Shown piece after piece: positions 7,279 to 62,616 of a DNA stretch of 64,000 bases. This stretch comes from an uncultured virus (IMG/VR IMGVR_UViG_3300008116_000198) (Duplodnaviria; Heunggongvirae; Uroviricota; Caudoviricetes). A program made the position numbers and the translations under genes. The stretch is taken from IMG/VR virus record IMGVR_UViG_3300008116_000198. The stretch is one strand, 5' to 3'. Below the pieces are notes generated by a model that saw nothing but the letters and a program-made list of their open reading frames with translations, searched no databases and was not told where the DNA came from. Positions within the stretch are counted from its first letter, which is position 1; each line of letters opens with the position of its first letter.

Positions 7279-7283
7279 AATAG

Positions 7284-7326: not shown

Positions 7327-7336
7327 TTATAAATTT

Positions 7337-9196: not shown

Positions 9197-9260
9197 AAAG
9201 GTTATGGTTGTCAGTTGTCCCATAAACTGACTGGTGGAGGATGGTGAATTCATCATCCCT

Positions 9261-9292
9261 AACAACCCCCAAGAAATTGGGGGTTGTTTTTT
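9261..9292 (+). terminator. intrinsic terminator downstream of dnaK
   Basis: AACAACCCCCAA-GAAA-TTGGGGGTTGTT followed by a T run. Confidence 0.85.
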
Positions 9293-9302
9293 GTATATAC
9301 GA

Positions 9303-9310
9303 TATTTATA
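9303..9310 (+). promoter_or_regulatory. TATTTATA putative late promoter
   Basis: Recurrent motif; ends 4 nt before ATG 9315. Confidence 0.6.
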
Positions 9311-9314
9311 ATAC

Positions 9315-10862
9315 ATGACATTTTTCGCATTTCTAGTGCTTTTAAGCGCAATAGCCATTTCTGCTTGTGGTGCATATTTTAGCATTATTGGTCTTAAAAT
9401 GTTGTTTATTGGGGGAGGAGTATCAATCATAGTGATGGGAACCGCGCTTGAAATTGGAAAACTTATCACCGCCACCTTCTTGAAACAAAAATGGAACGAG
9501 ATTGGATTTCTTCTGAAAACATATCTTGTTATCGCCACAATATTTTTGATGGGTATAACTTCTATAGGAATATATGGGTATTTGAGTGCAGGATACACTT
9601 CAACAAATATTGCAGTAAAAGGATATGAGCAACAAATAGAATCAAACAATATAAAGATAGTTGATCTTGAGAAAGAAATAGAAACACTCAAGAAGACAGA
9701 ATACAATGTGGTGGAAATAGGAGCGACTGAAGATAATAGGAAAAAAACAATAGAGCAAAAATTACAACTGATTGCTCAAAGAAATCAACGTATAGAAGCT
9801 ATAAGAAAATCATCAAACACAAATCAAGACGCATCTGGTGATATTTTAGCAGCCAAGCAAGCATTGGAATTATCAAAGTCTTCAACAGATAACGATATCT
9901 CAAGAGAACTTGAGCAAATAAAGCTGTATAATTCAAGATTAGAAATTTTAGATAAGGAAGTACAGAAATGGATAGATCAAGGAACGGGAAATTTATTCAG
10001 AAAAAGCGGGTTGGACCAAGCAAGAATTGTAAAGGAAGGACAGGAAAAGGAACGCTCCGATATAGATGCACAAATTAAATCTTCACAGGACAGAATATCA
10101 AAATTAAGAGATCAATATTCATCCCAAGTAAAAGAATACAACAGTCGTGTAGCTGAAATAGAAGGTAGAAGTAAATCACAAAGAGGAGAAATAGAATCCA
10201 ATGTAAAAAATCTTGAAAAAGAAATAACGGAAATAGAAGCATCTATAGTATCATACAATAAGGAAGTGGATGAAAAGATTTCATTGCTTAACAAGAACAA
10301 AGAAGAATCCGCCGAAAAAGGAAAAAATAAAATTTCAGAATATCAAGAAAACATAAAAGTTCTTAGAGTTCAAAACACCGAGATACAGGAAAAAATTATT
10401 GGGACTGACGTTGGTACATTTAAATTCATCGCAAATAGTCTTGGAATACCATTGGAAAAGGCTGTAAATTATTTCATATGGTCTATTATGGCCGTGTTTG
10501 ATCCATTGGCTATATGTTTAATCCTAGCATTTAATTCGTTGATGATAGATAGTAAAAACAAAAAATCAAAAAATAATGATAAAGAACTTAACGTAGTTGA
10601 AATTTTACCTACGTTGGAACACACGCCCACACCAACTCCTACACCAACTCCTACACCAACTCCAACGCCAACTCCAACGCCAACTTATATACCTTCTCCA
10701 ACGCCGACATATGTTCCATCTAACACTCCAACACCAACGCCAACCGAAATACCAATTCAAGTCGAGTCTACAAATGAAGATATAAATGTTGCCGCGCCAC
10801 TTCCCCCACCAATTGCTATACCTCACGCAATATCAAATGGAAAATTGCATCCAAGACAATAA
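9315..10862 (+). CDS. membrane-anchored coiled-coil protein with a Pro-Thr repeat tail
   Basis: Three N-terminal hydrophobic segments, a long heptad region, a further TM segment (FIWSIMAVFDPLAICLILAF) and a (PT)n tract. Confidence 0.8.
   Translation: MTFFAFLVLLSAIAISACGAYFSIIGLKMLFIGGGVSIIVMGTALEIGKLITATFLKQKWNEIGFLLKTYLVIATIFLMGITSIGIYGYLSAGYTSTNIAVKGYEQQIESNNIKIVDLEKEIETLKKTEYNVVEIGATEDNRKKTIEQKLQLIAQRNQRIEAIRKSSNTNQDASGDILAAKQALELSKSSTDNDISRELEQIKLYNSRLEILDKEVQKWIDQGTGNLFRKSGLDQARIVKEGQEKERSDIDAQIKSSQDRISKLRDQYSSQVKEYNSRVAEIEGRSKSQRGEIESNVKNLEKEITEIEASIVSYNKEVDEKISLLNKNKEESAEKGKNKISEYQENIKVLRVQNTEIQEKIIGTDVGTFKFIANSLGIPLEKAVNYFIWSIMAVFDPLAICLILAFNSLMIDSKNKKSKNNDKELNVVEILPTLEHTPTPTPTPTPTPTPTPTPTPTYIPSPTPTYVPSNTPTPTPTEIPIQVESTNEDINVAAPLPPPIAIPHAISNGKLHPRQ
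10623..10746 (+). repeat. coding tandem repeat (CCAACN)n encoding Pro-Thr
   Basis: acaccaactcct / ccaacgccaact units. Confidence 0.85.
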
Positions 10863-10925
10863 ATTATTTATTATACATTGACAAAAATAAATTTATGCAT
10901 ATATATGTAAGCCTCAATCATATAT

Positions 10926-11540
10926 ATGAGTTACAAAATTGTCAAAAACAAGGATTATCTACACAAGAAGACTGAACCAGTAGCGTCGATTGAAGAAGGC
11001 GAAGCAATTGCGAAGCAACTAATAGAAGCACTGGACCAGCTATCAAACGGACTTGGTTTATCCGCCAATCAAATTGGAATATCAAAGTCGGTTTCTGTCA
11101 TAAGAGTTAAGAAGGACAAAGATCCATTGATTCTTATGAATCCAACAATAACGGAATATAGTAAAGAAAAGCTTGTATTCACCGAAGGCTGTTTGAGTTT
11201 GCCCGGAAAACTTACAAACACGGTTCGTTCAACAAAAGTTACAGTATCAACATTAAATCATGCCAATCCAATTCCATTCGGACCAGAGGTCGAGCCAATC
11301 ACACAAGAATCTGTGAGAAGTGACTATGGGATATTAGAAGCGGTGTGTGTACAGCACGAGATAGATCATCTAAATGGTGTTCTTATGACCGACGACGGTG
11401 TAAGATACAACCCTCCACCAGAAAAAAAAGTAAAATATGGAAGAAATGACAAGGTGATGGTAGAAAAAAATGGAGAAACTCAATATATAAAATACAAGAA
11501 AGCCGAAGAGCTTTTAGCCGATGGATGGAAAATACTATAA
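10926..11540 (+). CDS. def: peptide deformylase
   Basis: GLGLSANQIG, EGCLS and QHEIDHLNG motifs; C-terminal GRND extension. Confidence 0.95.
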   Translation: MSYKIVKNKDYLHKKTEPVASIEEGEAIAKQLIEALDQLSNGLGLSANQIGISKSVSVIRVKKDKDPLILMNPTITEYSKEKLVFTEGCLSLPGKLTNTVRSTKVTVSTLNHANPIPFGPEVEPITQESVRSDYGILEAVCVQHEIDHLNGVLMTDDGVRYNPPPEKKVKYGRNDKVMVEKNGETQYIKYKKAEELLADGWKIL

Positions 11541-31892: not shown

Positions 31893-34800
31893 ATGGTAGA
31901 TACATACGAAACACTTGATATAGGCTTGGACAAAGTTGATTATGTTGTTCATGTCTCAGACATTCACATTCGCTTGACCAAACGCCATGAGGAATATCGT
32001 GAGGCATTTGCCAAACTATATAAGGAAATTGAAAATACACCAAAGAACACGGTTATCATAAACACGGGTGATACATTGCACAGCAAGGTTGATTTGTCAC
32101 CTGAAGCTGTTCAACTTACCAGTGAATTGTTTCATAATTTGGCAAATCTTCGTCCTACCATTGTTATTGCGGGAAATCATGACTGTCTTCTTACCAATGT
32201 TACACGTTTGGACAGCATTTCTCCTATCATTGATAATCTAAAACATAAAAATCTGTTTTATATCAAAGGTACAAAATTGTTTGGCGCGGGAAATCTTCTC
32301 ATCAACAACATGAGTGTGTTTGATGATCCTACCAAGTACATTCGAATGAAGAATGTGGTGAAGAAGATCAAGACAGCATTCGATACCAAGGTTGCGCTAT
32401 ATCATGGATCTGTGTTTAGCGCGATGACTGATGTTGGATATGAGGTTACTGACAAAACCGTATCAAACGAGTTGTTTGATGGTCATGACATAGCGATGCT
32501 TGGTGATATTCATATGGCGCAAAATTTACAGCAATATGATGCCTCTAATGAAAAACCTATCATACGATATGCGGGATCTTTCATTCAACAAAATCACGGT
32601 GAAGCATTAAGTGGCCACGGATTTTCATTATGGGATATTAAAAACAGAGCATATAAGCATATTGAAATACCAAATGATTATGGATATTTTACCATTGATA
32701 TTGACGATGGTAAGTTGATCACAGACATAAGCGGTTTGCCAAGTAAGCCAAAGATGCGTGTAAGATGCAAAGAAACGATTGCATCGGAAGTGAAAAAGGT
32801 GATAAATGAGATCAAAAAGAACCACGAAATCACTGATATCATTTATATGCGAGTGGAAAGTGATGACGCCACCAAGGTTGCAAAAAAGCAAGCATCTGCC
32901 AATCTCACACAGATTACAAATCTTGATTATCAGAACAAACTGATGTCGGAATGTCTTAAGGTCAAATATCCTGAAATCATGGACGATGAAACTCTTGAGA
33001 CTGTATACAAAATTAACAAGGATCTTAATTCATCATTGGACGATGACGATGTTTCAAAGAATATCAGATGGAAGCCAGTTAAGTTTGAATTCAGTAATAT
33101 GTTCAGTTATGGCGAGGACAATGTAGTTGATTTCACCAAGCTTGATGATGTATACGGATTGTTCGCGTCGAATGCCAGTGGTAAATCTTCCTTGATGGAT
33201 GCATTATGCTTTACAGTATTTGACAAGAGTGCCAGAGCATTCAAGGCAGTACATGTTCTTAATTCGCAAAAAATGAGTTTTAGCGGAAAATTCACTTTTG
33301 AAATCAATGATATGCAGTATGTCATTGAACGAAAAGGTTCACGTGACAAGAAAAATAATGTGAAAGTTGATGTAAACTTTTATAAGATTGAAAAGAATGA
33401 AAAGATAAGCTTGAACAGCGAAGCTCGCCGCAGTACCAATGAAATCATCAGAGATTATTTGGGAGATTATGATGATTTTGTTCTTACCACACTTGCTCTA
33501 CAGGGAAATCAAGGATCTTTCATTGATATGGGTCAAACAGAGCGCAAAGAACTTCTATCACAGTTCATTGGATTGAATGTGTTTGATAAGCTTGCTGCCA
33601 GTGCCAATGACAAGATCAAGGAACTTACTGGTGCCATCAAAACTTTCAACAAGGAAAACAATCAGTCAAAAATTGAAGGAATGAAAACTGAGGTTGGATT
33701 ATTGGAATCTAAACTAATTGATTTGAACGAGCAAAAGGAAAAGCACAGTGATGAATATGTGAAAATAAACGAGAAGATAAATACCGAGCAATCCAAACTT
33801 GTTAAGTTAGATAATGTTCCAACCAATGTTGCCACCTTGAAAAAAGAAAAGGAGACGTTGGAAATAAAAATCAAACAAGCAGTTGAAAGTGTTTCAAACA
33901 TAGACAAAGAAATTCAGACAAAGAAAAAAGAATATGATGAAATTATCAGTAAACTAAACGAATTTCCATCGGACTTGAAAGAAAAAGCAGATAAACATGC
34001 CAGTTTGAATAGAAACAAGCAGCGGATTGAGCAAGAGATGGAAAAACTGAAACTGGTTGTCAAGGAGAAGCTCAATAAACTTGATCATCTATCAAAGCAT
34101 GAGTATGATCCAAATTGCAAATACTGCTGTAATAATGCATTTGTCAAGGATGCTATGGCTGCAAAAAACAGTCTCAATGATGACAAAGAGGAAGCAAGAA
34201 AACTGTCAGTTTCATTGGCTGAAATAAAATCGCAGATAGAAGAACTTGAACAGTTTGTATCACAATATCAAAATAGTTCATCTCTGAAAGATCGTTCAAA
34301 TATTCTGTCGTCATTTATTTCCAAAAAGGAACTCGAAAAAGCAACACTAAGCAATTTATTGGACAAGAGTAAAAACAGATCAACTGAAATTGAAAACCAA
34401 ATTGAAATTTATGAACGCTCAAAAGAGATCATAGAAAACAATAAAGTTATTCTTTCTGTAATAACAGAATTAAAGTCAACTAGTAGCGATCTATCGTCCA
34501 AGCTCAAGAGCATTGAAAAGTCTCATGTTGATGCATACAGTCGAAAAGTATCAGTGTCTGATCAAATCAAAAACATCGAAGAGCAGATAAAGAAAATAGA
34601 AGATTATGAGAATGAAGTGGCCTCATATCAATATTACATTGCTGCGATTGGAAAGGACGGTGTACCATATCGCATCATATCAGACGCAATTCCAAAAATT
34701 GAACAAGAAGTAAACAATATATTGTCACACATTGTTGAATTCACTATGGAAATGGAAACAGATGGTAAGAATGTGAATGTGTATATCAAATATGATGATC

Positions 34801-35099
34801 GTAAATGGCCGCTTGAACTTTGTTCTGGTATGGAAAAGTTTGTGGCTGGTTTAGCACTTCGTGTTGCACTAATCAACATCAGTAATCTTCCAAGACCAAA
34901 TTTCCTTGTGGTAGATGAAGGATTTAGTGCATTGGATGCATCAAATATGCCAATGGTTCATGCATTGTTTGATTATTTGAAGACCAATTTTGACTTCATT
35001 GTTGTAATAAGTCATCTTGATGCCATGAGAGATATGGTCAATAAACAGCTTGAGATCAGGAAGGAAAACGGGTTCAGTAAGATAGATAACACGGTTTAA
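31893..35099 (+). CDS. fused Mre11/SbcD nuclease and Rad50/SbcC ATPase (gp47-gp46-like)
   Basis: SDIH, GD, GNHD and GDIH phosphoesterase motifs; NASGKSS Walker A, CKYC hook, CSGMEK signature, VVDEGF Walker B and ISH loop. Confidence 0.93.
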   Translation: MVDTYETLDIGLDKVDYVVHVSDIHIRLTKRHEEYREAFAKLYKEIENTPKNTVIINTGDTLHSKVDLSPEAVQLTSELFHNLANLRPTIVIAGNHDCLLTNVTRLDSISPIIDNLKHKNLFYIKGTKLFGAGNLLINNMSVFDDPTKYIRMKNVVKKIKTAFDTKVALYHGSVFSAMTDVGYEVTDKTVSNELFDGHDIAMLGDIHMAQNLQQYDASNEKPIIRYAGSFIQQNHGEALSGHGFSLWDIKNRAYKHIEIPNDYGYFTIDIDDGKLITDISGLPSKPKMRVRCKETIASEVKKVINEIKKNHEITDIIYMRVESDDATKVAKKQASANLTQITNLDYQNKLMSECLKVKYPEIMDDETLETVYKINKDLNSSLDDDDVSKNIRWKPVKFEFSNMFSYGEDNVVDFTKLDDVYGLFASNASGKSSLMDALCFTVFDKSARAFKAVHVLNSQKMSFSGKFTFEINDMQYVIERKGSRDKKNNVKVDVNFYKIEKNEKISLNSEARRSTNEIIRDYLGDYDDFVLTTLALQGNQGSFIDMGQTERKELLSQFIGLNVFDKLAASANDKIKELTGAIKTFNKENNQSKIEGMKTEVGLLESKLIDLNEQKEKHSDEYVKINEKINTEQSKLVKLDNVPTNVATLKKEKETLEIKIKQAVESVSNIDKEIQTKKKEYDEIISKLNEFPSDLKEKADKHASLNRNKQRIEQEMEKLKLVVKEKLNKLDHLSKHEYDPNCKYCCNNAFVKDAMAAKNSLNDDKEEARKLSVSLAEIKSQIEELEQFVSQYQNSSSLKDRSNILSSFISKKELEKATLSNLLDKSKNRSTEIENQIEIYERSKEIIENNKVILSVITELKSTSSDLSSKLKSIEKSHVDAYSRKVSVSDQIKNIEEQIKKIEDYENEVASYQYYIAAIGKDGVPYRIISDAIPKIEQEVNNILSHIVEFTMEMETDGKNVNVYIKYDDRKWPLELCSGMEKFVAGLALRVALINISNLPRPNFLVVDEGFSALDASNMPMVHALFDYLKTNFDFIVVISHLDAMRDMVNKQLEIRKENGFSKIDNTV

Positions 35100-41982: not shown

Positions 41983-43755
41983 ATGAGCAAACCAATCAGA
42001 CTAACTGTTATAATTCCTTGTTACAACTTTGAAAAGTATGTAACACAAGCTATCGATTCTGTGTTGAATCAGAATGTGAACTTTGGTATTGAAGTATTGA
42101 TTGTGGATGATAATTCTACTGATAATACTTTCAACATCATAAATCAAAAATATGGATCAAACAATTTGGTGAAGATACATCAGTCTCCAAAAAATCAAGG
42201 AATAACAAAGAATCTCAAGGACATGATGGATAAGGCGCTGGGCCAGTATCTGTATACAATGGACGGCGATGATTTCATCATTGATATGAATTATCTTCAA
42301 CGTGCGGTTGATTTTTTGGATAATAATCCAAAATATTCATTGGTATGTTCTGGCTACAAACTTTTATATAACGATGGAACGATGTATCCCACAGAGGACG
42401 ATCCTGCCGTATGGTCTGCTCCACGTGAAGACATATATCTCAATGATTTGCTCTCGGTGAATTATATTTCATTTGGCAGAGTATTTCGTAATTACAAGAA
42501 TATCATAAAGCCTTGGATGCACGATGAACTGCATGAAGATTGGACTATCAATGCGGAAATATTGAAGAACGGCCCAGCCAGATGTGACAAGAATTATACA
42601 GGAATTTACAGAATAACAAAAGCTGGTCGCATAACTTCCATGAGCGAAGGACAGGTACACGAGAAGAACAGAAAAACTATTGCCGCCATAAAGAGCAATC
42701 TTACACTGAAAACAATATCAATTGTTGATTCATTTGTACACAATGAAAATGTTAAAGTTAAGCTTGAGAGATGCATTAAATTTTTGAAAGAGGATGGGCA
42801 TGAAATTTTGCTGGTATCCAATACTCCTGTGGATAAGCATATTATACAAGATGTAAAATTTTTCATGTATGATAGCAGAAATCAACTATTCAAGCAGGAA
42901 TATGAGACAAAAAACACAGTTGATTTTTGGCGTGCATTGAATGGTAATTTGGAAGTACATGATATTGTTACCGCAGTGCAAAAGCACGGTCTCAGTGTTC
43001 TTATCAATCTATTCAATGCACTACATTATGCAAAACAACAGGGATATACACATTTTCAAAGATTTGAAGTCGATGATTTGTTTGGTGAAAAATCAAGATC
43101 TTGGATCAAGCGAGTTCCAACATATGTACTTGAAGAAGATAAACGAGGATTGATATATTACAATTATGAGAATTCTCCTTCTGATATTTCGTTTCACTAT
43201 TTCTTCTGTGAGATAGATTATTTTCTAAAGAAGATAAGCCGCATAACTTGTGAGGAAGATTATGTGAAGTATCTGCATGACTATTATGGTAACAAGGAAT
43301 TCAAGATTGTAGAAGTATTCATGTATGATCAATTAAAGAAGAATGGCGACAAGGAAATATTACAGAAGACTGGAAGAGAAATGAAGATTGATTTTTTCGA
43401 CACGAAATGGAACACAGAAACTTCCGTAAGTAATTTTGAAACAACATTCTTTGGCTGCACCACCAAGGTGTATGAAGCTAGAAATTGGAATTCTGTGGCC
43501 AGAGAGTTCAATAAGAGGGACGATTATGTGTTGGTAACATATTCATACAATGATACACCTATAAAACGCATAATTGATGTTGAAAAACATGATGGTACCA
43601 GAGAAACAATCGAGCAGTCTGTACATGCAGCTGGTAGTTGGGTATGGCATGTTCTGTCGCCAAATTCAAAAGCAGTTTCAGTTTATCAAGACGGTAATCT
43701 ATTATACAATCAACAAATAAAAAATCTTGAATCTTGGGCTGGATTCAGAAGCTAA
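41983..43755 (+). CDS. GT2 glycosyltransferase with an additional C-terminal domain
   Basis: VIIPCYN, VDDNSTDNT and MDGDD. Confidence 0.85.
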   Translation: MSKPIRLTVIIPCYNFEKYVTQAIDSVLNQNVNFGIEVLIVDDNSTDNTFNIINQKYGSNNLVKIHQSPKNQGITKNLKDMMDKALGQYLYTMDGDDFIIDMNYLQRAVDFLDNNPKYSLVCSGYKLLYNDGTMYPTEDDPAVWSAPREDIYLNDLLSVNYISFGRVFRNYKNIIKPWMHDELHEDWTINAEILKNGPARCDKNYTGIYRITKAGRITSMSEGQVHEKNRKTIAAIKSNLTLKTISIVDSFVHNENVKVKLERCIKFLKEDGHEILLVSNTPVDKHIIQDVKFFMYDSRNQLFKQEYETKNTVDFWRALNGNLEVHDIVTAVQKHGLSVLINLFNALHYAKQQGYTHFQRFEVDDLFGEKSRSWIKRVPTYVLEEDKRGLIYYNYENSPSDISFHYFFCEIDYFLKKISRITCEEDYVKYLHDYYGNKEFKIVEVFMYDQLKKNGDKEILQKTGREMKIDFFDTKWNTETSVSNFETTFFGCTTKVYEARNWNSVAREFNKRDDYVLVTYSYNDTPIKRIIDVEKHDGTRETIEQSVHAAGSWVWHVLSPNSKAVSVYQDGNLLYNQQIKNLESWAGFRS

Positions 43756-43759
43756 CAAT

Positions 43760-45883
43760 ATGAAAGTAATTAATGTAAATCCGGGCATACTTCCCATTCC
43801 ACCAAATGGATGGGGCGCAATCGAAAAAATCATATGGGATTATCATCTCCAACTGCAAAAAATTGGAGTACACAGTGAGATAAAATACCTTAACGAAATC
43901 GAATATGACGATAGCACAATTGTACACGTACATGTGGCAAATTTGGCTAACATGTTTCACGAGAAAGGTGTACCTTATATTTTTACTATCCATGACCATC
44001 ATGCATATGTTTATGGAAAAGATTCTCCAGTATTCAAAGAAAACTTAAAAGCCATAGAAAACAGTGTATTTTCATTATCACCATGCAAATATTTGCTTCC
44101 ATATTTTGGTAGCAAAAAACTAAGATATTTTAGTCATGCTGTAAATACCGATGTTTTTACATTCAATAATCGTCATAGACACAATCCACTGAAATTGCTT
44201 TGTGTAGCTAATAATGGATATGCATATAACCAAAGTGTGGATAGAAAGGGATTTGGAATTGCAATACAAGCAGCAAAAGAATTAGGTCTTCCAATCACAA
44301 TTGCTGGGCCAAAAAATAATGACAACTTTTTCAAGACCCTTGACCCAGAACTAAACAACTATTCCAAGCTAACAAAACTGTATGATTTGGATGAAAAATG
44401 GTTGGTAAATTTGTACAACGAAAACGATCTGTTCCTTCATTTCTCTGAATTGGAAGCTGGACATCCGAATCTAACATTATTGGAAGCAATGGCGTGTGGT
44501 CTTCCGGTTGTTGGAACTTTTGAGGAAAAAGAGTATGATGGCATGGTAGTTTCCGAAAGAAAATTTGAAAATGCCATAGAATCAATTAAATATGCTGATC
44601 AAAATTATGATTTATTGAGAAATCATGCATTAAGCAATGCAAATAAAAATTCATACGCTAACAGAGTACATGGTTTGGTCAAACTATACAGTGAATATAG
44701 AGAGCGTATTTTCAGCAAGCAACTTGAAGTTGCATACAGTAACACCAAGATAACATATACTGAAGCGAAAAATAGAATCAAAGTAACATTTGATGACGGT
44801 GCAAAAGTTGATATATCTGGTGCAGTTCAGAAAAAATACAGAGTAAAATTCATAGATGGTCTTACCAACATGGTTGTATATCAAACTGATATATACAACA
44901 ACATGTGGGCCACTACAAATACCAAGTACTACAACAAGTGGTTGGTAGAAGTGTTTGATATCACCGACGGCATTGAAGTGTTGGAATATTCCGAGGCAAT
45001 GGATCTAAAGAATCGCACAGTAAAAGTTGTATTCGACAGTGAAAGTTTGGGAGATATTCTTGCGTGGATCGGCGCCGTCGATGAATTTCAAAATAAACAT
45101 CAATGCAAGATGTATTGTGTGATATTCAACAAGTACTTGCGTGCTTTACTTGAAAAAAATTATTCAAACATAAAATTTTTGGCTGTTGATGTTTACGCCG
45201 AAGAATATTATGCAAAGTATAAGATAGGATGTTTTGATTCAAATGGATATCATCCATATATTCCAAAGGATCCGCGCACATTGAATTTGTGTTCAATTGC
45301 AAATTGTATTTTAGGTTTAACAGATGTTGAACATAAACCAAAGCTGAATATTGACAGAAAGAAATACAGTAAAAATAAGAAATATGTATGTATTGCTGTG
45401 CAAAGTACATGTCAGGCAAAATACTGGAACAATAAGAATGGTTGGAACAATGTGGTCAAATATCTTAAATCTCAAGGATATGAAGTATGGTGTATAGACA
45501 GATTCAACAGCTTTGGCACCAAAGATAATATGAATTATATACCAGACGGTTGCATTGATAAGACCGGAGACTTTCCGTTGGAAGAACGCATGGCTCAGTT
45601 GGCTGGTGCAAAATTTTTCATTGGACTAAGTTCTGGTCTTTCGTGGGTGGCGTGGGCGGTAGGTGTGCCAGTTGTAATGATTAGTGGATTTACAAAGGCA
45701 TATAATGAGTTCTATACGCCGCATCGTATCATAAATGAAAATGTATGCAATGGCTGTTGGAACGACGTTAATGTGAAGTTTGACCGCTCTGATTGGTTAT
45801 GGTGTCCATATAACAAGAACTTTGAATGTTCTACTCAAATATCTGTGGATAGAGTGCTGTCTGAAGTTAAAAAGTTGATATAA
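43760..45883 (+). CDS. GT4 domain fused to a TibC/Aah-like autotransporter heptosyltransferase domain
   Basis: PPNGWGAIE and EAGHPNLTLLEAMACGLPV; SLGDILAW, FFIGLSSGLSW and CNGCWN...WCP...FEC cysteine cluster. Confidence 0.85.
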   Translation: MKVINVNPGILPIPPNGWGAIEKIIWDYHLQLQKIGVHSEIKYLNEIEYDDSTIVHVHVANLANMFHEKGVPYIFTIHDHHAYVYGKDSPVFKENLKAIENSVFSLSPCKYLLPYFGSKKLRYFSHAVNTDVFTFNNRHRHNPLKLLCVANNGYAYNQSVDRKGFGIAIQAAKELGLPITIAGPKNNDNFFKTLDPELNNYSKLTKLYDLDEKWLVNLYNENDLFLHFSELEAGHPNLTLLEAMACGLPVVGTFEEKEYDGMVVSERKFENAIESIKYADQNYDLLRNHALSNANKNSYANRVHGLVKLYSEYRERIFSKQLEVAYSNTKITYTEAKNRIKVTFDDGAKVDISGAVQKKYRVKFIDGLTNMVVYQTDIYNNMWATTNTKYYNKWLVEVFDITDGIEVLEYSEAMDLKNRTVKVVFDSESLGDILAWIGAVDEFQNKHQCKMYCVIFNKYLRALLEKNYSNIKFLAVDVYAEEYYAKYKIGCFDSNGYHPYIPKDPRTLNLCSIANCILGLTDVEHKPKLNIDRKKYSKNKKYVCIAVQSTCQAKYWNNKNGWNNVVKYLKSQGYEVWCIDRFNSFGTKDNMNYIPDGCIDKTGDFPLEERMAQLAGAKFFIGLSSGLSWVAWAVGVPVVMISGFTKAYNEFYTPHRIINENVCNGCWNDVNVKFDRSDWLWCPYNKNFECSTQISVDRVLSEVKKLI

Positions 45884-45898
45884 AAACCCATTGATATA

Positions 45899-45906
45899 TA
45901 TTTATA
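45899..45906 (+). promoter_or_regulatory. TATTTATA putative late promoter
   Basis: Ends 4 nt before ATG 45911. Confidence 0.6.
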
Positions 45907-45910
45907 TCAT

Positions 45911-48900
45911 ATGGACATTTCTATAACCAATCTCAAAAAGTATGTTTTTGAGCCTAAGACAGAGTCTTTGCGACTAAAGCGTGCCAATGAGATATTGGGG
46001 CAGGGAATGATTGCTACGGAAAAAGTGGATGGCACAAAACTTACTCTTGTTCGTACTAATCAGACTGATCCGAATGATTATACCAAGAATTGGGTTGTAG
46101 CATATAAGGGAACTGTATTATATCCAAAAGAGTTTGCATACCTTACTCCACAGGGAAAAAAAGATATATCTCAATCATCTGTTGGTATAGGCCAATATGC
46201 TTTGATTTTTGATCATTTGGAAAAAATCAATAACAAGATTGCTAGTATTCCAAAAAGCACGGAGTTCAGTGTTGAATTTGCGCAGAACAAGGATACTCTC
46301 ACAAGAACATATGTTCAGAAAGGTGGAATGTTCTTAAGAAGTTATGGTGAGGTGTCATATCGTATTGTTGGTGGTGGGTTGAATACTGTTCCGAAACAAG
46401 AGATCACAGACTATACCAACGTAAAAAGAATGGCAGATCTTTTGGAAATTAGCGCGTTTCCTATTTTCTTTCAGGGCAAAATAACAAGAGAAAATGTAGC
46501 AAAATATCCATCAATTGCGCCAAAAATGATGAGCGCCGATTGGAATAATCCATTGGATGTGTTAACCAAGTTTTCTGATGCTATGCTGTCTATACCATCT
46601 ACTCTTGGTGGTACAACGGAGGGCGTGGTACTGAAACTTGATAATGGAAGCTTTTACAAAATTGTTCAAGCTGACCAATATAGCTCTGATGTAAGAGGTG
46701 CTAAGAAAGATTTGTATAAACTTGAGCCAGAAGCGGCCACATCATATTTCCAACAGATCAGAGCACTTATTCAAAAAGTATTTGATACCATTGGCACGGA
46801 TGGAAAGACAGAAGAAGATATCATATCCGACACAAACTTTTACATTGCCAAAAATGAAAAAAGCTTGGCTAAATTTTTTGATGCATTGCAGAAGATTGCT
46901 GGAAACAAAAAGAACCTCGTACAGATCAAGGATGATATTCACGACACTGTTCGTCTTATGACTTCAAAGCAGGAACTCCTTGGGTCAAAAACAAAATCAA
47001 TCGCGCTTCTTCCTATTGCTGGCAAACCACTACACATTGGACATTGGAAACTGATTGAAAAGGCGGCAAATGAAAATGATAATGTTGTGGTCTATACATC
47101 AACAACCGACCGTGTGCGTAAAGGAGAATTTCCGATATATGGCGATGATTTTGTGCAGATATGGAGTGATATGCTCATTCCATCATTGCCAAAGAATGTA
47201 AAAGTGAAATTTGTTGATTCTCCATTAAGATCTGTCATGCATGAACTTGGATGGTTTGAACAAAGACTTACTCAAGACGCTGCAAATGTACCAGTCATTA
47301 ATCTATATTCAGACAAAGAGGATATTGAAACAAATTTCAAGCAAGAAGATCTGAACAAGTATCCAGAATTATTGAAAGCTGGAAAGATCAATAAAGTTGG
47401 CGTAGAAAGAACAAGTACGGTCAATGTCAGCGGCACAAAGATGAGAGAATTCTTGCAGAACAATGACAAGGACTCCTTCATGAAATATTTACCTCCTATA
47501 TCAACCAAGGATAAAGAACAAATATGGAATATTCTTTCATCTCGCAGACCAAGTGATCTTGCTGAAATAAATCCATACGCTGTATTGGCTGAAAAACTGA
47601 TTAATGAAGTTGCAAATGAAATATTGAATGAAGGCGGATGGAGAAATCCAGAGACACAAGAATGGGAAGTTACACCAAAGATGGTGGCAAAGATCGTGGA
47701 AGACACTAACAAATTTTTGAATGATTTCAATGCATGGTCTGGATTATCCAAGTTGTCAACCAAAGGTCCGACAGGAAGTGGAAAATATTACAAGAACGAC
47801 TTGAATGATCCAAGTATAACTTATGGAGATATTGATATTCAACTTGTATTGCCCGTTGAAAGCAATGAAAGAAAAAATCAATTAGAAGCCAATAAAATTT
47901 TTGGAGACAAGATCCGTGAGTTCATAAAGACCAAAAAACCAAGCTATATTCACGACGCAACAAATGATCCAGATTTTGGAATTGGATACTTGATATTCAA
48001 TGTGGATGGTAAAAAAGTTCAAGTTGATCTTGTACTATCATATACTGTTTCAGCTGATTGGACGAGTGTAAGAACAACGCCAGAAAAAGGATTGAAGGGA
48101 TTTGTCACAGGAATGATGTTAAGTGCATTGAGTGACACATTGAATGTTGTTCTTGGGTCAAGCACCAATCCGTATATCAACACTGTTGATGGAAAGGTTG
48201 TATCATCCTCAATCAAGAAAGATGCTGTGCAAAAATTCCTAAAGCCAAATGAAGTATTTGCCGAGATTGTACGATTTTATGGTGAAATGGCGGACATTGA
48301 AAACCCAGACTTATCTTTATTGGTTGGTTATATGGGCCTTGATGCCAACGACCCTTCATTAAAAAAGAAATGCCAAACCGTGGTTGCTTTGGCAAATACA
48401 CTTGAAAAGAATGGAATATTTGACGCTGGAGTCATAACCTCCAAGGATGGTATAACAATCAAAAGCAGAAAACAATTTGTTGATCGCGTAAGAACCACAT
48501 ACATCGATATGATGCAGCGAGCAAAAACAGCCAAAAAACTTGAAAAAGCACAAACACCAAGCGCCATGAGAACAATAGAAAAAATAAAAAATCATGCTGA
48601 TCTGGGAATACAGATGGCAAACGAACTTATTAAAGAACATTATACACTTCTGATGGAATCTGGTAAATCCATAGCCGCCGTGGACCCAAAAACGCCAAAG
48701 ATGGTAAATGGTCAGCCAGCACAGGCAACAACCAAATTAAGAATTGTTGATCCGCAGGGCAAGGATGTGCATTCAGCAGTGTCAAAGGACATCAAGGAAC
48801 TTGTGTATGTATTGAATGCCAAGGTCGGTTTTTGGAAAAAGAATAATCCGTACATTGAAAATGGATTTATATTCAATGGTAGTTCACAATTTCTAATGGA

Positions 48901-49813
48901 TCCAAACAAGTTTGGTGTGTTGAGCAAATACAAAGATTCTTTTGGTGACATAGATGTTATCATTCCAAAATCAAAATTGGATGCTTTGACATCATTTTTG
49001 GACAGCATTGATGACAATAAAGCTGATTGGAATCCGACAACTCAAAACAGATTGTCTAGTAAGTTTTATTATGTTGGACGCACGAAGAGTTATGCATCCA
49101 TTCCAGATCAACTTGTAACACTTTGGTATTATGATCCAATGAAGCAAGTTGTTCAAGTGGACTTTGAAGGTGATGAAATGTTTCTTGATCCGCAAGGATA
49201 TGAAAAGCCAAGCGAGTGGACAAAATTCAGCAAAGATTCTCCGTGGGAAGATTTGACCGTAGGTATCAAGGGATTGGCTGGGGCATTAATGCTTCGCTCA
49301 TTAGCAAGAGCAACAACAGTATTACCAAATGCAGTTGTGTTGACGCCGGGCGCAGTCAAGAAAGTTCAGTCTGGTGCAGTCAAGGAACTTACCGATAAGG
49401 AAGTTACTAAAGCAGCACAGCACAGTATTCCATCTGCATACACATTAAATACTGGCGGTGGTGGTACTGGTATACGTAAGGCATACGAATTAGTAAAGAC
49501 AATGCCATATAATGGGAAGATGGTTGATGCATATAGATTTGTGGAAGCCAAAGAAACAAAACCAGAAGACAGAATCACGGATGTTGGCAGAATATTTGAA
49601 ATATTGTTCAAAAAGAAAGCATCGCCTGAAGAAAGAGCTGAATTTCGCAGCTATCAGGGACTGTTAAGACTAATGAAGAAATATTTGGACAAGAAAACCA
49701 TCGACATTGCTATGAATAGATTCACGGAAGTTTTGGCTGGCGAAGGTTTAAATCCAAAGGAATATGCTTCTGTGCAAAAGGCTACGAAAGATATTCTTGG
49801 ATTGTCTATATAA
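45911..49813 (+). CDS. multi-domain nucleotidyltransferase: ligase-like KxDG domain, HIGH-type domain and two Pol-beta-like domains
   Basis: TEKVDGT/EGVVLK/YKIV; KPLHIGH/VSGTKMR; TGSG..GDIDI..QVDL; NGSS..GDIDV..QVDF. Confidence 0.75.
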   Translation: MDISITNLKKYVFEPKTESLRLKRANEILGQGMIATEKVDGTKLTLVRTNQTDPNDYTKNWVVAYKGTVLYPKEFAYLTPQGKKDISQSSVGIGQYALIFDHLEKINNKIASIPKSTEFSVEFAQNKDTLTRTYVQKGGMFLRSYGEVSYRIVGGGLNTVPKQEITDYTNVKRMADLLEISAFPIFFQGKITRENVAKYPSIAPKMMSADWNNPLDVLTKFSDAMLSIPSTLGGTTEGVVLKLDNGSFYKIVQADQYSSDVRGAKKDLYKLEPEAATSYFQQIRALIQKVFDTIGTDGKTEEDIISDTNFYIAKNEKSLAKFFDALQKIAGNKKNLVQIKDDIHDTVRLMTSKQELLGSKTKSIALLPIAGKPLHIGHWKLIEKAANENDNVVVYTSTTDRVRKGEFPIYGDDFVQIWSDMLIPSLPKNVKVKFVDSPLRSVMHELGWFEQRLTQDAANVPVINLYSDKEDIETNFKQEDLNKYPELLKAGKINKVGVERTSTVNVSGTKMREFLQNNDKDSFMKYLPPISTKDKEQIWNILSSRRPSDLAEINPYAVLAEKLINEVANEILNEGGWRNPETQEWEVTPKMVAKIVEDTNKFLNDFNAWSGLSKLSTKGPTGSGKYYKNDLNDPSITYGDIDIQLVLPVESNERKNQLEANKIFGDKIREFIKTKKPSYIHDATNDPDFGIGYLIFNVDGKKVQVDLVLSYTVSADWTSVRTTPEKGLKGFVTGMMLSALSDTLNVVLGSSTNPYINTVDGKVVSSSIKKDAVQKFLKPNEVFAEIVRFYGEMADIENPDLSLLVGYMGLDANDPSLKKKCQTVVALANTLEKNGIFDAGVITSKDGITIKSRKQFVDRVRTTYIDMMQRAKTAKKLEKAQTPSAMRTIEKIKNHADLGIQMANELIKEHYTLLMESGKSIAAVDPKTPKMVNGQPAQATTKLRIVDPQGKDVHSAVSKDIKELVYVLNAKVGFWKKNNPYIENGFIFNGSSQFLMDPNKFGVLSKYKDSFGDIDVIIPKSKLDALTSFLDSIDDNKADWNPTTQNRLSSKFYYVGRTKSYASIPDQLVTLWYYDPMKQVVQVDFEGDEMFLDPQGYEKPSEWTKFSKDSPWEDLTVGIKGLAGALMLRSLARATTVLPNAVVLTPGAVKKVQSGAVKELTDKEVTKAAQHSIPSAYTLNTGGGGTGIRKAYELVKTMPYNGKMVDAYRFVEAKETKPEDRITDVGRIFEILFKKKASPEERAEFRSYQGLLRLMKKYLDKKTIDIAMNRFTEVLAGEGLNPKEYASVQKATKDILGLSI

Positions 49814-49873: not shown

Positions 49874-50497
49874 ATGAAGAAAAATATAGATATTGTCAGA
49901 GATTATTTGAACGGTGAACGCCCTGTGATACAGGTTGGATATCGTGGTGATATGGACAAATATATCATCAGAAAAGTTGGAGAACGTTGGACTGATTCCA
50001 GTGGAAAAGAATGGGAACAAAAAGATTATGGACCCGTTGCCGTGACGAGAGTTTCGGATATTATCCGCGAGGAAATGAATGATAAATGTGTATGTTGTAA
50101 GAAAGAAATAAGATGGGGAACAAGACAAGATCGTAAAATGTATTATCGTACAAAGAAATGTTTGGATTGTGTTGTGGAAGAAGAAACTCAATTAAAAATC
50201 AAAGGAAAATACAAATTGTACGAAACCAAGAAACTGCTTGAGAATGAACTATCGTATTTAAATGATATTCGACAGAAGCTAAAAGAGAGCAAGGATTATC
50301 TTGAAAGTGAAGATTCAAAGACCCTTACATGGGCAAATTCAACAGGTATGGTTGAAGAATGGAGTAATGAAGCAAGAGGAGAATTACTTGAAAACGTCAA
50401 AAAAGATTTTGTGACTTGTTTGAAAAAAATAAAAGCGGCTGAAAAGGAGTTGAAGAAAGTAGATGGAGAAATTAGCAAAGTTCTTACCCCAAGCTGA
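49874..50497 (+). CDS. hypothetical protein with CxxC-type cysteine pairs
   Basis: RKVGERWTD, CVCCK...CLDC and a coiled-coil C-terminus. Confidence 0.75.
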   Translation: MKKNIDIVRDYLNGERPVIQVGYRGDMDKYIIRKVGERWTDSSGKEWEQKDYGPVAVTRVSDIIREEMNDKCVCCKKEIRWGTRQDRKMYYRTKKCLDCVVEEETQLKIKGKYKLYETKKLLENELSYLNDIRQKLKESKDYLESEDSKTLTWANSTGMVEEWSNEARGELLENVKKDFVTCLKKIKAAEKELKKVDGEISKVLTPS

Positions 50498-50852
50498 TGT
50501 AATTGATGCATTGGCTCATAGGGTGAAATCAAGATTTTCATCGTCCGATGGGAAATGTGAATACATGGCCCAAGAACTTGTAAAGGAACTAAGAAGCAGA
50601 GGAATAAGAGCGGAGCATGTGATGGGGATATTCACATTGGATGAACCGGGAGCATGGAAATATAGATCGGATGAAGATGAAAATTTGGATGAATATCAAG
50701 TCAATCACGATTGGGTAAATGTTGAAGGAAAAATATTGGATATATCAGCGGACCAATTCAAGAAATATGTTTATGTGAACATACCTGATGTGGTGTATAT
50801 AAGTTACTCTGATCCATTATACAGATATTACGAGGAACTTGGACATGTCTGA
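50463..50852 (+). CDS. putative transglutaminase/papain-like fold protein
   Basis: GKCEYMA ... NHDW ... ILDIS gives the Cys-His-Asp order. Confidence 0.5.
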   Translation: MEKLAKFLPQADVIDALAHRVKSRFSSSDGKCEYMAQELVKELRSRGIRAEHVMGIFTLDEPGAWKYRSDEDENLDEYQVNHDWVNVEGKILDISADQFKKYVYVNIPDVVYISYSDPLYRYYEELGHV

Positions 50853-56739: not shown

Positions 56740-57366
56740 ATGAGCAAGCAACTACTAGTCGATTTTATTCCATTTGAGATTTCTCCTCAATTGTTAAGTG
56801 AAGCCAAAGCAAATCCAAATGCACCATTGGTATTAAAGGGACCATTGCAGAAGGCTGGAGAAAAGAACCATAACGGTCGTGTATATCCACGCGAAGTATT
56901 GGAACGTGAAGTTGAAAAGTATCAGCAAATCATCAAGGAACGTCGCGCACTTGGTGAACTTGATCACCCAGACAGTTCAGTCATCAATCTTAAGAATGTA
57001 TGTCACAATGTAACAGAGTGCCATTGGGAAGGCGATACTGTTGTTGGTACAATTGAAATTCTTACTACACCAAGCGGTAACATTGCTCGCGATCTTATTC
57101 GTAACAATATCCGCATTGGTATCAGCAGTCGTGGATTGGGCAGTGTTCGTCAAATGAACGAAAATACAGTTGAGGTTCAAGATGACTTTGAACTACTTTG
57201 CTTTGACCTTGTATCTTCGCCTTCAACACGCGGTGCATATATGAATCTTGCCGAAGGAATCAATCGTGACAAACAATTGATTGGTGGTACACAAGATCGT
57301 AAAGACATCAACAAGTATTTGAACATTGAAAATATCATTCGTGATATTCTTTCGGAAACACGTTGA
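56740..57366 (+). CDS. prohead protease (T4 gp21-like)
   Basis: NHNGRVYP, ALGELDHP, GISSRGLGS and FDLVSSPS. Confidence 0.95.
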   Translation: MSKQLLVDFIPFEISPQLLSEAKANPNAPLVLKGPLQKAGEKNHNGRVYPREVLEREVEKYQQIIKERRALGELDHPDSSVINLKNVCHNVTECHWEGDTVVGTIEILTTPSGNIARDLIRNNIRIGISSRGLGSVRQMNENTVEVQDDFELLCFDLVSSPSTRGAYMNLAEGINRDKQLIGGTQDRKDINKYLNIENIIRDILSETR

Positions 57367-60113: not shown

Positions 60114-61730
60114 ATGTCAGACATCAAATCACTACTAACTGAGACAACCAATCCAATGGTTAAGCTCATGAGCGAAACCCGTGGACTAGTGTCCAAATGG
60201 GAAAAGACTGGTCTTCTAGAAGGAATTAAGACCGACATGGAAAAATCACACATGTCGATTCTTTTGGAAAACCAAGCAAAGCAACTAATCGACGAAGCTA
60301 CCCGCACTGGTACTTCAGCTAACTCCGAACAATGGGCAGGCGTTGCTCTTCCATTGGTTCGCCGTGTTTTCGCTGAAATCGCCGCTAAGGAATTCGTCAG
60401 CGTTCAGCCAATGAACCTACCATCAGGTCTAGTATTCTATCTAGACTTCAAGTATGGTACCAACCAAGCTGGAAAACCAGCATTCGTAAACCAAAGCTTG
60501 TTCGGTGGAACAGGAACAAAGTTGGGTTCAACCGACAGCGCAGTCAATGGTCTATATGGCCAAGGCCGCTTCGGTTACACCATCAATGACGTTTCTGGAA
60601 GCTCAAACTTCACAGGAACAGCCACAACTGGTTCATGGTTGGATGCAAAGTTCGTTCCAGAACTATCATCATCAATCGTTGCTACCGAAATCATCAAGAT
60701 CACCGTTGACATGGATCCAGACACATATGGAACCGATCTAAATGGTGCTCGCGCATTCACGATCTCTGGATCTGGAATCGTTGATTTCTACCCAGCATTC
60801 ACAAGCGTTTCTGGAAACAATGTTTCGTTCATCGTTTCTGGTTCCGCAATTGGTGCATCCCCATCCGTAAAGATCGTTTATCACAAGCAACCAGCACCAA
60901 CAAGCCGTGGCGACTTCGAAGATCTCGGCGCAGGATTGCCAAATCAAACAGGTGTTGCCAATGACGTTGGAATTCCAGAAGTCAACCTAGAGTTGAAGTC
61001 CGAAGCCATCGTTGCAAAGACACGCAAGTTGAAAGCCGTCTGGACACCAGAATTGGCTCAAGACTTGAACGCATATCACTCAATCGACGCAGAAGCAGAA
61101 TTGACTGCTCTATTGAGCGAATACGTTTCGATGGAAATCGACCTAGAAATCCTCGACATGTTGGTAACAGCCGCTCCAACAGCAACAACCGAATACTGGT
61201 CAGCACGTATCGGTGACGAATATGACACAACACAAAACAAGTTCGTCGCAACTGCTGCTAACCGTACAGCATACGTAAAGAGCACATGGTTCCAAACATT
61301 GGGCAACAAGATCCAAAAGGTCTCCAACAAGATCCACCAGTTGACACTACGTGGTGGAGCAAACTTCCTAGTTTGCAGCCCAGACGTTGCAACCATCATC
61401 GAATCCATCCCTGGCTTCACAACCAACACAGATGGTGACCAAGCAAAGTTCGCAATGGGCGTTGCCAAGGTCGGTGCTCTAAGCAACCGTTGGACAGTAT
61501 ACAAGAACCCATACATGACCGACAACGTCATGTTGGTTGGTTTCCGTGGAAGCAACTTCCTAGAAACCGGCGCTGTATACGCTCCATACATCCCACTGAT
61601 CCAAACACCATTGGTGTACGATCCAGTGAACTTCACACCACGCCGTGGTGTGATGACACGTTATGCAAAGAAGATGATCCGCCCAGAATTCTACGGCAAG
61701 ATCGTCATCGGTGCATTGAACGAAGTCTAA
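60114..61730 (+). CDS. major capsid protein (T4 gp23-like)
   Basis: LPLVRRVF, VQPMNLPSGLVF, AKTRKLKAVWTPELAQDL, YAPYIPL and GVMTRY. Confidence 0.97.
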   Translation: MSDIKSLLTETTNPMVKLMSETRGLVSKWEKTGLLEGIKTDMEKSHMSILLENQAKQLIDEATRTGTSANSEQWAGVALPLVRRVFAEIAAKEFVSVQPMNLPSGLVFYLDFKYGTNQAGKPAFVNQSLFGGTGTKLGSTDSAVNGLYGQGRFGYTINDVSGSSNFTGTATTGSWLDAKFVPELSSSIVATEIIKITVDMDPDTYGTDLNGARAFTISGSGIVDFYPAFTSVSGNNVSFIVSGSAIGASPSVKIVYHKQPAPTSRGDFEDLGAGLPNQTGVANDVGIPEVNLELKSEAIVAKTRKLKAVWTPELAQDLNAYHSIDAEAELTALLSEYVSMEIDLEILDMLVTAAPTATTEYWSARIGDEYDTTQNKFVATAANRTAYVKSTWFQTLGNKIQKVSNKIHQLTLRGGANFLVCSPDVATIIESIPGFTTNTDGDQAKFAMGVAKVGALSNRWTVYKNPYMTDNVMLVGFRGSNFLETGAVYAPYIPLIQTPLVYDPVNFTPRRGVMTRYAKKMIRPEFYGKIVIGALNEV

Positions 61731-61787: not shown

Positions 61788-61824
61788 ATTGTATATATCA
61801 TATGTATTTTTCGTACAAAATATT

Positions 61825-62616
61825 ATGAAGAAACTAAAATATTTATTGTTAAGTTTGTTAACATTGGTATCCATTTTGGTCGCCAATCCTATTGATGACA
61901 AGGCATCAAAATTTGTTTTAAATGGTGCGCCAATTAGCAAAATTACAAAAGATAATCAATATTTGATCAAAAAAGTATATGCTATTCATTACAGATATGA
62001 CAAGAAAACAGCAGAGTATGTAGTAGAGCGTCCTACAAAAGAAGATATACTTGGTGGAGCAAAAAGGCAGGATGATTTCAGACCAGATCCAGAAATACCA
62101 GAAAAGCATCAGTCAAAATTAAGCGACTATGCTGGTAATCCATATGATCGTGGTCATATGGTTCCTGCTGGAAATTCAACAAAGAATGCGGACACAATGA
62201 GTGAAAGCTTTTTTCTTTCAAACATGGTACCACAAGTTCCAAATCATAATCGCGGAATATGGAAGCAATTGGAAACATGTGTAAGAAATTGGGTGGTTGA
62301 TGAGGGTAAGGATTTATATGTTATTAGTGGTACAGCATATAATCCAGATCATAAAACAATTGGTGAAAACAAAGTTGGGGTACCAGATTATCTTTGGAAA
62401 ATTGTGATTGACGCAAAAACAAATACTTCTATATCATTTTTGTTTCCAAATACTTCATTACCTGTTGAAGATTTACCAAAGTATATTGTTAGTATTTCAG
62501 AAATAGAAACAAAAACAGGAATTGATTTTAATCCAAAAATGCCATCAAAGCAGCAAAAGGAATTTGAAGCCAGTAAAGCGGATCAAAAGAATTGGACTGG
62601 GCTGATCAAGAAATAA
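61825..62616 (+). CDS. DNA/RNA non-specific endonuclease (NucA/EndoG type) with a signal peptide
   Basis: DRGHMVPA and SFFLSNMVPQ...NRGIWKQLE; N-terminal MKKLKYLLLSLLTLVSILVA. Confidence 0.92.
   Translation: MKKLKYLLLSLLTLVSILVANPIDDKASKFVLNGAPISKITKDNQYLIKKVYAIHYRYDKKTAEYVVERPTKEDILGGAKRQDDFRPDPEIPEKHQSKLSDYAGNPYDRGHMVPAGNSTKNADTMSESFFLSNMVPQVPNHNRGIWKQLETCVRNWVVDEGKDLYVISGTAYNPDHKTIGENKVGVPDYLWKIVIDAKTNTSISFLFPNTSLPVEDLPKYIVSISEIETKTGIDFNPKMPSKQQKEFEASKADQKNWTGLIKK

Follow-up and report, generated by a model that had tools for sequence, protein, structure and literature searches.

A candidate head-cargo polyprotein of an uncultured T4-like phage that joins ligase-like, HIGH-superfamily and Pol X-like nucleotidyltransferase domains

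Enzymes carried inside a phage head are known from T4, where Alt, a modifying enzyme, is packaged and cut by the prohead protease gp21, and where the cleavage rule of this protease is given as L/I-X-E (PMC9026906). Polyvalent proteins of phages and conjugative elements hold unrelated enzyme domains in one chain, and their co-delivery with DNA and their processing have been predicted (PMC5512222). The virion of ASFV, the African swine fever virus, packages Pol X with a ligase (PMC12172490). Here we compare with these systems a locus in a 64,000-nucleotide stretch of DNA from an uncultured virus (IMG/VR record IMGVR_UViG_3300008116_000198), called the window at its full length. A plus-strand gene (45911..49813) encodes a polyprotein of 1300 amino acids (aa), free of internal stops, with a ligase-like domain (D1), a HIGH-superfamily adenylyltransferase domain (D2), a Pol X-like nucleotidyltransferase domain (D3) and a distant paralogue of D3 (D4). 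From sequence comparison we consider it very probable that this polyprotein is packaged and cut into three enzymes. The literature searched (largely without subscription journals) holds no description of this enzyme module, which we regard as new and which would be a form of T4 internal-protein cargo.

Four domains and two linkers, all on the plus strand, cover the 1300 residues. D1 (residues 1-358, 45911..46984) is by fold search and motifs an Rnl2-like ATP-grasp adenylyltransferase/ligase domain with a helical C-domain, and D2 (residues 361-545, 46991..47545), placed by fold search and PHROG matches, is a HIGH-superfamily adenylyltransferase (NMNAT/PPAT-like) fixed to D1. D3 (residues 575-908, 47633..48634) is by fold search a minimal Pol X-like nucleotidyltransferase with palm and thumb, a helical tail and the Asp triad D640, D642 and D706; D4 (residues 917-1300, 48659..49810), recognised by hhalign to D3 and by phrog_19290, is a second Pol-beta-superfamily domain (D1013, D1015, D1084). 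Linker 1 (residues 546-574, 47546..47632) is a leader-like helix with a predicted local distance difference test score (pLDDT) of 50-58; it ends in L-N-E574 and has further candidate sites at E561 and E566. In linker 2 (residues 909-916, 48635..48658) conservation and matrix ranks point to I-K-E909 and L-M-E916. The junction Glu codons lie at 47630-47632 (E574) and 48656-48658 (E916). A preliminary description, made from the letters of the window, had reported this open reading frame (ORF) and its motifs, and a sequence check found every one in place: TEKVDG (K38 at 46022), EGVVLK (E237) and YKIV (K250) in D1; KPLHIGH (47033-47044) and VSGTKMR in D2; GS...GDID (47825-47836) and QVD (48020-48028) in D3; GS...GDID (48944-48955) and QVD (49154-49162) in D4. 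Pfam and PHROG matches, AlphaFold models with fold searches and the invariance of E574 and E916 confirm that the four domains and their motifs exceed chance; the claim of three nucleotidyltransferase folds in one chain is borne out by the predicted models, the fold searches and the conserved catalytic residues.

Among the four-domain sequences E574 and E916 are invariant (36/36 each) and E909 is kept in 34/36, while the flanking linker varies. A profile search with D3 and D4 matched 912 clusters at 50% identity, and junctions were counted in the best 150. D3 was matched in 47, three of them fragments; in the other 44 it is preceded by Glu (41), by a start Met (2) or by another Met (1). D4 was matched in 106, and the residue before it in the 104 scored is Glu (46), a start Met (49), another Met (5) or something else (4); two D4 cases missed by the pattern both follow Glu when inspected by eye. 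Position P3 is hydrophobic at 93/93 Glu sites (L 46, I 35, V 10, F 1, M 1), compared with 28% at other glutamates, and P2 is free. As aligned, this signature matches the gp21 rule, and the two gp21-type junctions of the preliminary description are supported by the invariant glutamates and the hydrophobic P3. A matrix that spans ten residues and ends at P1, derived from 85 distant sites, places E909, E574 and E916 first to third among the 75 glutamates of the query, with E14 fourth, E566 fifth and E561 seventh. E14 (score 5.7) was rejected as a cut site: Pro follows, and the site lies inside the conserved N-terminal fold. When 45 window genes are ranked by the same matrix, E10 of the major capsid protein comes out on top (score 10.7), and the prohead protease and several small head-region proteins are also in the top ten.

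Residues 1-576 were modelled with a pLDDT of 90 and a predicted template-modelling score (pTM) of 0.85, and in this model D1-D2 folds as one rigid unit. Four separate products were rejected. We predict three, since there is no conserved D1-D2 site and D1-D2 models as a unit; of the proposed cleavage into separate enzymes, packaging and processing are judged likely, with D1-D2 left uncut. Helix leaders that end in hydrophobic-X-E also occur in the window at 15647, 30490, 55402, 55719, 56215 and 57371 (plus strand) and at 63296 (minus strand). The leader-bearing genes, which encode small unknown proteins and include a lysozyme-like gene (phrog_13211), are candidates for further head cargo.

The window carries T4-like head genes by Pfam and PHROG matches, with terminase at 50839 and portal at 52556, and is part of a large T4-like phage. 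The presumed processing enzyme is a gp21-like prohead protease of the Peptidase S77 type (56740..57366, plus strand; PF03420, E 2.8e-25; phrog_207, E 1.5e-53), and the major capsid protein (60114..61730, plus strand; PF07068, E 1.5e-77) has an N-terminal L-T-E10. A gp21-type protease and a gp23-type capsid protein are encoded in the same genome, as in T4. The locus further resembles T4 IPI-III and Alt in its L/I-X-E sites, in the short leaders of stand-alone relatives and in its enzyme cargo (PMC9026906). It differs in that T4 trims terminal propeptides of single proteins, whereas here internal joints would free three enzymes; in addition, the query copy has no N-terminal capsid-targeting propeptide, and its enzymes bear no relation to IPI or Alt. 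In polyvalent proteins a zincin peptidase or MuF/ArdC domains are part of the chain itself, and a minimal form of Pol-beta nucleotidyltransferase is known in them from conjugative elements (PMC5512222). The polyprotein gave no Pfam or PHROG match to a zincin peptidase or MuF/ArdC-type domain; unlike polyvalent proteins, it would be cut in trans by the head protease.

A word search returned 84 relatives of 715-2275 aa, and identical copies are present on freshwater-type viral contigs. Among 265 proteins the order D1-D2-D3-D4 occurs in 40 (query included), D1-D2-D4 in 23 and D1-D2-D3 in 16; rarer orders are D4-D1-D2 (2), D1-D2-D4-D3 (1) and DUF6267-D3 (3), and single domains, with fragments counted in, are found as D4 only (128) or D3 only (43). 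D1 and D2 stay joined in nearly all relatives, and D3 and D4 are gained or lost as whole blocks. Close relatives split the gene at the joints, into D1-D2-D3 and a separate leader-bearing D4 (L249) or into D1-D2 and D4 (L237, L238, L246-L248), and in all of these the freed D4 bears its own leader. Many stand-alone forms have leaders of 8-12 residues of the T4 capsid-targeting kind; stand-alone domains behind xxE-GG leaders in other phages were thus found as predicted. The mature N-terminus (Gly or Ser, then Gly) would be reached either by the protease or by removal of the start Met, which is removed before Gly. A near-length search for stand-alone D3 gave two fragments only, a sensitivity limit overcome by the profile search. 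A scan of genome contigs found five loci, all on contigs of metagenome-assembled genomes, and therefore no clear cellular family.

Other forms were seen among the relatives. In L016:1944-5162, P0038 and P0040 most of D3 is lost in frame and a short remnant precedes D4. Long polyproteins of 873-1841 aa (P0083, P0084, P0128, P0134, P0141, L122:1474-6999, L128:1712-5587) combine D3 or D4 with domains of other kinds (ParB, DUF6934, another Pol-beta domain); hydrophobic-X-E stands where D3 or D4 begins and, as judged by eye, at further boundaries. A third family of Pol X-like proteins, about 250 aa long, stands in tandem with stand-alone D3 genes in L084, L085, L104, L108, L120 and L139, and in L120 a Glu leader precedes it. 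Among cultured phages, Campylobacter phage CP220 (gp026, gp100) and Vibrio phage Va1 (Va1_161, 166) have the pair of D4 and D1-D2 genes, some of them leaderless, and in Xanthomonas X1 and Stenotrophomonas Ps15 (ORF146-149) a D4-like, an unknown, a ligase-motif and a HIGH gene follow one another; tblastn of cultured phages found neither a D3 homologue nor the third Pol X-like family.

The cyanomyoviruses offer a related arrangement, the pair of DUF6267 and a 'cytidyltransferase' (phrog_455, phrog_395), in which a protein with ligase-like motifs likewise adjoins a HIGH domain or is fused to it. The HIGH protein of this pair bears a leader and was detected in virions (PMC9146016, PMC10665884). 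In S-SZBM1 it is a 362-aa cytidylyltransferase, found by virion mass spectrometry with 2 peptides and 13.5% coverage (PMC9146016); the second account reports a match of the same kind and warns of carry-over (PMC10665884). The S-SZBM1 gene, assigned by name and length, starts with a leader of the junction type and falls in phrog_395, a family that D2 matches as well. The cyanophage DUF6267 proteins (L081:3501-5782 in S-SZBM1, L082:3519-5298 in S-PM2) contain KxDG and EGxV motifs of the ligase kind, and the 3 proteins counted above join D3 to DUF6267; the literature searched holds no description of DUF6267. Profile comparison did not support homology of D1 and DUF6267, the profiles aligning over motif IV-V only, with a probability of 6%.

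Several points weigh against packaging and cutting of the query. Virion presence, cleavage and ejection of this family are deduced by comparing sequences; the one experimental pointer, an indirect one, is the virion cytidylyltransferase, and its matches (2-3 peptides) may be carry-over (PMC10665884). CP220 gp026 and gp100 are not among the 11 virion bands identified in the account of that phage (PMC2853527). T4 targeting sequences are described as N-terminal (PMC9026906); the query copy starts at the conserved N-terminus of D1 with no leader, and many relatives have a leader before D1. Moreover, 49/104 D4 relatives start with Met-Gly-Gly(-Asn), leaderless, and upstream stops indicate that five Met-start D4 genes are truly so. 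Where the tail of a Met-start D4 protein could be scored, it is at least 10 residues long in 20 proteins (some with a Glu site and leader-like helix) and short, without a C-terminal tag, in 27. Because many D4 relatives have neither a leader nor a C-terminal tag, we conclude that the enzymes also serve as ordinary cytoplasmic proteins, with packaging as an add-on, and that some family members are not packaged. The leaderless query, the tagless relatives and the short CP220 virion list (PMC2853527) would all suit an ordinary cytoplasmic fusion, neither packaged nor cut, in which the Glu sites are leftovers. It is countered by the invariance of E574 and E916 amid a variable linker and by the convergence of unrelated leaders on one P3/P1 rule at all 93 sites, and we regard it as highly unlikely.

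The helix tag may function internally as well as at either end, an idea that has been partly tested. Possible C-terminal capsid tags were seen in leaderless proteins that end in Glu plus a helix similar to N-terminal leaders from the same phages: the D1-D2 genes of L063, L066, L070 and L076, the HIGH genes of L065, L068, L073 and L075, and P0110, P0158 and P0225.

Structural comparison places D1 closest to nick-sealing RNA ligases, and sealing activity is predicted. D1 matches T4 Rnl2 (Foldseek E 3.2e-8; VIA Z 11.7) and a nick-sealing RNA ligase of Naegleria (VIA Z 11.8), with 186-187 residues of the RNA ligases aligned by VIA at a root-mean-square deviation (rmsd) of 3.7-4.1. Most DNA ligases and capping enzymes score lower (Z about 8), and one minimal DNA ligase reaches Z 10.0. 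As in the T4 Rnl2 family, D1 combines the adenylyltransferase fold, motifs I, III, IIIa and IV and a helical C-domain, including the motif I Lys and the motif III/IV Glu of the Rnl2 type, and its key residues are conserved in relatives (K38 61/63, E122 62/63, E237 61/63, K250 60/63). Unlike the Rnl2 and RlaP systems, D1 stays under the Pfam cut-off (PF09414, E 5e-4, 20.7 bits against 27), is fused to a HIGH domain, and has partners that match no RlaP profile. Ligases usually carry two Lys in motif V; in D1 K250 is kept and the second Lys is absent, which weighs against sealing.

D2 shows a Rossmannoid fold, HxGH and a C-terminal SxTxxR-type motif, as expected of a HIGH enzyme. Its structural matches are tied between NaMN/NMN adenylyltransferases (VIA Z 11.9) and PPAT (Z 11.7), and its PHROG matches are phrog_395 and phrog_3041 (cytidyltransferase) and phrog_3462 (E 1.4e-6). 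The NMN/NaMN adenylyltransferases among the top structural matches, together with phrog_3462, would allow D2 to restore NAD as an NMNAT against NAD-depleting defences, the other domains being co-packaged passengers. Yet PPAT ties NMNAT, D2 is fixed to a ligase fold, and an inspection by eye of representative sequences showed no NadV-like gene in the neighbour clusters that recur across 58 D4 loci; we find this role very improbable. The chemistry of HIGH enzymes, making or breaking a 5'-5' pyrophosphate, would fit cofactor supply or the handling of adenylated ends. We know of no end-repair pathway that employs a HIGH enzyme, a point against such a use of D2. Prediction of a complex of D1-D2 with D4 scored 0.52, 0.00 and 0.00 in three runs, which is evidence neither way.

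Residues 551-1300, with D3 and D4, were modelled at pLDDT 86 and pTM 0.52, so the orientation of D3 and D4 is not fixed. D3 aligns through palm and thumb with Pol beta, mu and lambda, bacterial Pol X and ASFV Pol X (Z 8.6-10.1); the Pol beta catalytic domain gives VIA Z 10.1 (189 aligned, rmsd 4.1) and ASFV Pol X Z 8.6 (162/176 residues aligned). The Asp triads are invariant in D3 (31/31) and D4 (65/65). Profile alignment of D4 with D3 (hhalign probability 89.9%, E 1.7e-6) spans the GS, GD-D, Q-D and G-KG motifs, and D4 appears to be a distant paralogue of D3; direct BLAST gives E 0.11 only, and profiles were required to link the pair. In the fold search of residues 551-1300 D3 filled the match lists, and D4 had one Pol-beta-fold row (Z 5.3). 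D3 and D4 profiles found no meaningful match, and no Pol X, among Pfam and PDB sequences; for lack of this link in sequence profiles, we call D3, and through its alignment also D4, Pol X-like by fold and do not class them as Pol X members. The label 'Pol-beta-type' of the preliminary description stands for the superfamily, and D3 is more specifically Pol X-like (palm and thumb), not generic Pol-beta or cGAS-type.

OAS, CD-NTases, cGAS, TUTases and poly(A) polymerases stay below the Pol X rows (Z <=7.4, mostly palm only). This bears on the proposal that the domains are injected effectors of host takeover or anti-immunity, with D3 and D4 nucleotidylating host proteins or RNA ends or making decoy nucleotides, and D1-D2 adenylating or capping ends. 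T4 Alt provides a precedent (PMC9026906), Pol-beta nucleotidyltransferases in polyvalent proteins have been proposed as protein modifiers (PMC5512222), and D3 also occurs in the long mixed polyproteins with unrelated cargo and is loosely tied to ligases (3/16 loci). Besides the weak effector-type matches, a tight linkage of D4 with D1-D2, which also holds for tagless forms that neighbour genes of DNA and nucleotide metabolism, suggests one pathway, and the effector proposal is quite doubtful.

The linkage was counted in loci fetched with D4 alone, 42 of them non-redundant with at least 3 kb on each side. A D1-D2 gene lies within 6 kb in 23/42, nearly always just downstream, and a HIGH domain in 30/42; D3 loci have D1 in 0/16 and DUF6267 in 3/16. 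The phosphoesterase phrog_547 occurs in 17/48 D4 loci versus 2/28 D3 loci, and two relatives (P0112, L193) have a P-loop kinase, either fused or in the adjacent gene. A family read by motifs as nuclease-like occurs in 10/58 D4 loci; Pfam did not confirm it. One clade has the pair of D4 and D1-D2 flanked by capsid and neck genes, another has it by DNA polymerase and nucleotide genes, and in L200 D4, another ligase-motif domain and a HIGH-like domain are fused behind a leader. Two caveats weigh against a functional reading of these counts: they compare different phage lineages, not phylogenetically independent, with no tree correction, and in the window no phosphoesterase or kinase gene is adjacent to the polyprotein gene.

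In a pathway for end healing and sealing, the components are a polymerase-like enzyme, a ligase, a phosphoesterase and a kinase (PMC7824862). Gene context and fold favour end repair over NAD restoration and signal synthesis. The ASFV repair set (Pol X O174L, ligase NP419L, AP endonuclease) is comparable in its minimal palm-and-thumb Pol X and in its ligase in the virion, where packaging is inferred for our locus (PMC12172490); unlike it, ASFV has separate genes, a DNA ligase that is not Rnl2-like and no HIGH domain, and there is no sequence-level match. As in the systems of RlaP with RNA ligase, the ligase-like part pairs with a Pol-beta nucleotidyltransferase and a phosphoesterase. A packaged and cut polyprotein could accordingly repair tRNA or other RNA against anticodon nucleases, with RlaP-like D3 and D4 restoring lost nucleotides and D1 ligating. 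D1 is nearest to RNA ligases, Pol-beta nucleotidyltransferases and calcineurin-like phosphatases work with phage RNA ligases (PMC7824862), and in Va1 no more than about 11 kb separates the genes from Rnl1 and a tRNA nucleotidyltransferase. The RlaP profile, however, matched 0/65 D4 and 0/31 D3 members at E<=0.1, and the thumb of D3 is of the Pol X kind that duplex-gap enzymes typically have. RNA repair, which overlaps with our preferred explanation and differs in substrate only, is rather unlikely.

Our best overall explanation is a packaged, cut polyprotein for mending duplex nucleic-acid breaks, to which we give about an even chance; break repair of duplex nucleic acid as the role is just as finely poised. 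The polyprotein would be made late as head cargo, and its leader-like linker helices would tether it in the prohead core. The gp21-type protease would cut after E574 and after E909/E916, sites suggested by conservation, to release the bifunctional ligase-HIGH unit, D3 and D4, the latter two with the same N-termini as stand-alone relatives. By analogy with T4 internal proteins and Alt, the three enzymes would enter the cell with the genome. In early infection the Pol X-like domains would supply one or a few nucleotides where there is a gap or an end, the Rnl2-like domain would seal the nick, while the HIGH domain would handle adenylate, making the ligase cofactor or forming or reversing a 5'-5' pyrophosphate on ends; in relatives, the linked phosphoesterases and kinases would clean ends. 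A wider proposal is that many T4-like phages share a nucleic-acid-end system of Pol X-like, ligase-fold and HIGH enzymes, the cyanophage DUF6267-'cytidyltransferase' pair included. A position-independent helix tag (N-terminal, internal or C-terminal) with gp21 cutting would load it into heads, in the present phage as a genuine polyprotein of three products, and breaks in the incoming genome would be patched with ribonucleotides and sealed in the Rnl2 manner, with HIGH making or undoing 5'-adenylated ends, as a day-zero repair against host nucleases. Taken whole, this proposal is tentative and unlikely.

Upstream of the polyprotein start codon lies TATTTATA (45899..45906, plus strand), a putative late-promoter element. 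Twelve of 13 plus-strand copies are at most 45 nt upstream of start codons (9303, 12884, 15624, 26498, 29684, 35104, 41158, 45899, 52519, 54497, 57647, 63375; spacing 12-37 nt), and several precede head, tail or neck genes; the element is a candidate promoter of this phage group. Because TATTTATA is what we take to be the T4 late box in reverse complement, that is, in the opposite orientation, late expression of the gene is only inferred; the preliminary description was right about the motif, and lateness was its own deduction. It had also put the gene three genes before terminase: two ORFs do intervene here, and this placement is not kept in all relatives. RNA runs matched short contig pieces from one study, uninformative on expression. 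Baseplate, primase and glycosyltransferase genes lie upstream in the window.

Further genes of the window are worth recording. A 129-aa ORF (50463-50852) overlaps the terminase start, has weak papain/transglutaminase-fold matches (PF15645 E 0.008, PF01841 E 0.03) and keeps its position in several relatives. Directly upstream of the polyprotein gene, 43727-45883 encodes a glycosyltransferase with GT1-like, weak TibC-like and GT9 heptosyltransferase parts, within a glycosyl-/methyltransferase cluster. A single 1068-aa ORF (31893-35099), in relatives often near the polyprotein gene, fuses SbcD-like and SbcC-like subunits. The region 6832-11540 encodes Hsp20, a 619-aa protein whose N-terminus presumably resembles DnaK, and peptide deformylase. 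Right after the capsid gene, 61789-62616 encodes a non-specific endonuclease (PF01223 E 8e-50) whose N-terminus includes a hydrophobic stretch.

If the proposal is true, processing by the T4 head protease extends from the trimming of propeptides to the freeing of a set of enzymes from a single chain. A simple sequence rule, hydrophobic-X-E and then a small residue where a domain starts, could then serve to predict injected cargo in uncultured T4-like phages. The module is widespread and unannotated, as the 912 clusters matched by the D3+D4 profile indicate, and it has members in cultured phages (CP220 gp026/gp100, Va1_161/166, Xanthomonas X1 and Stenotrophomonas Ps15 ORF146-149). It also gives a concrete hypothesis for the virion 'cytidylyltransferase' of unclear function in cyanophage papers.

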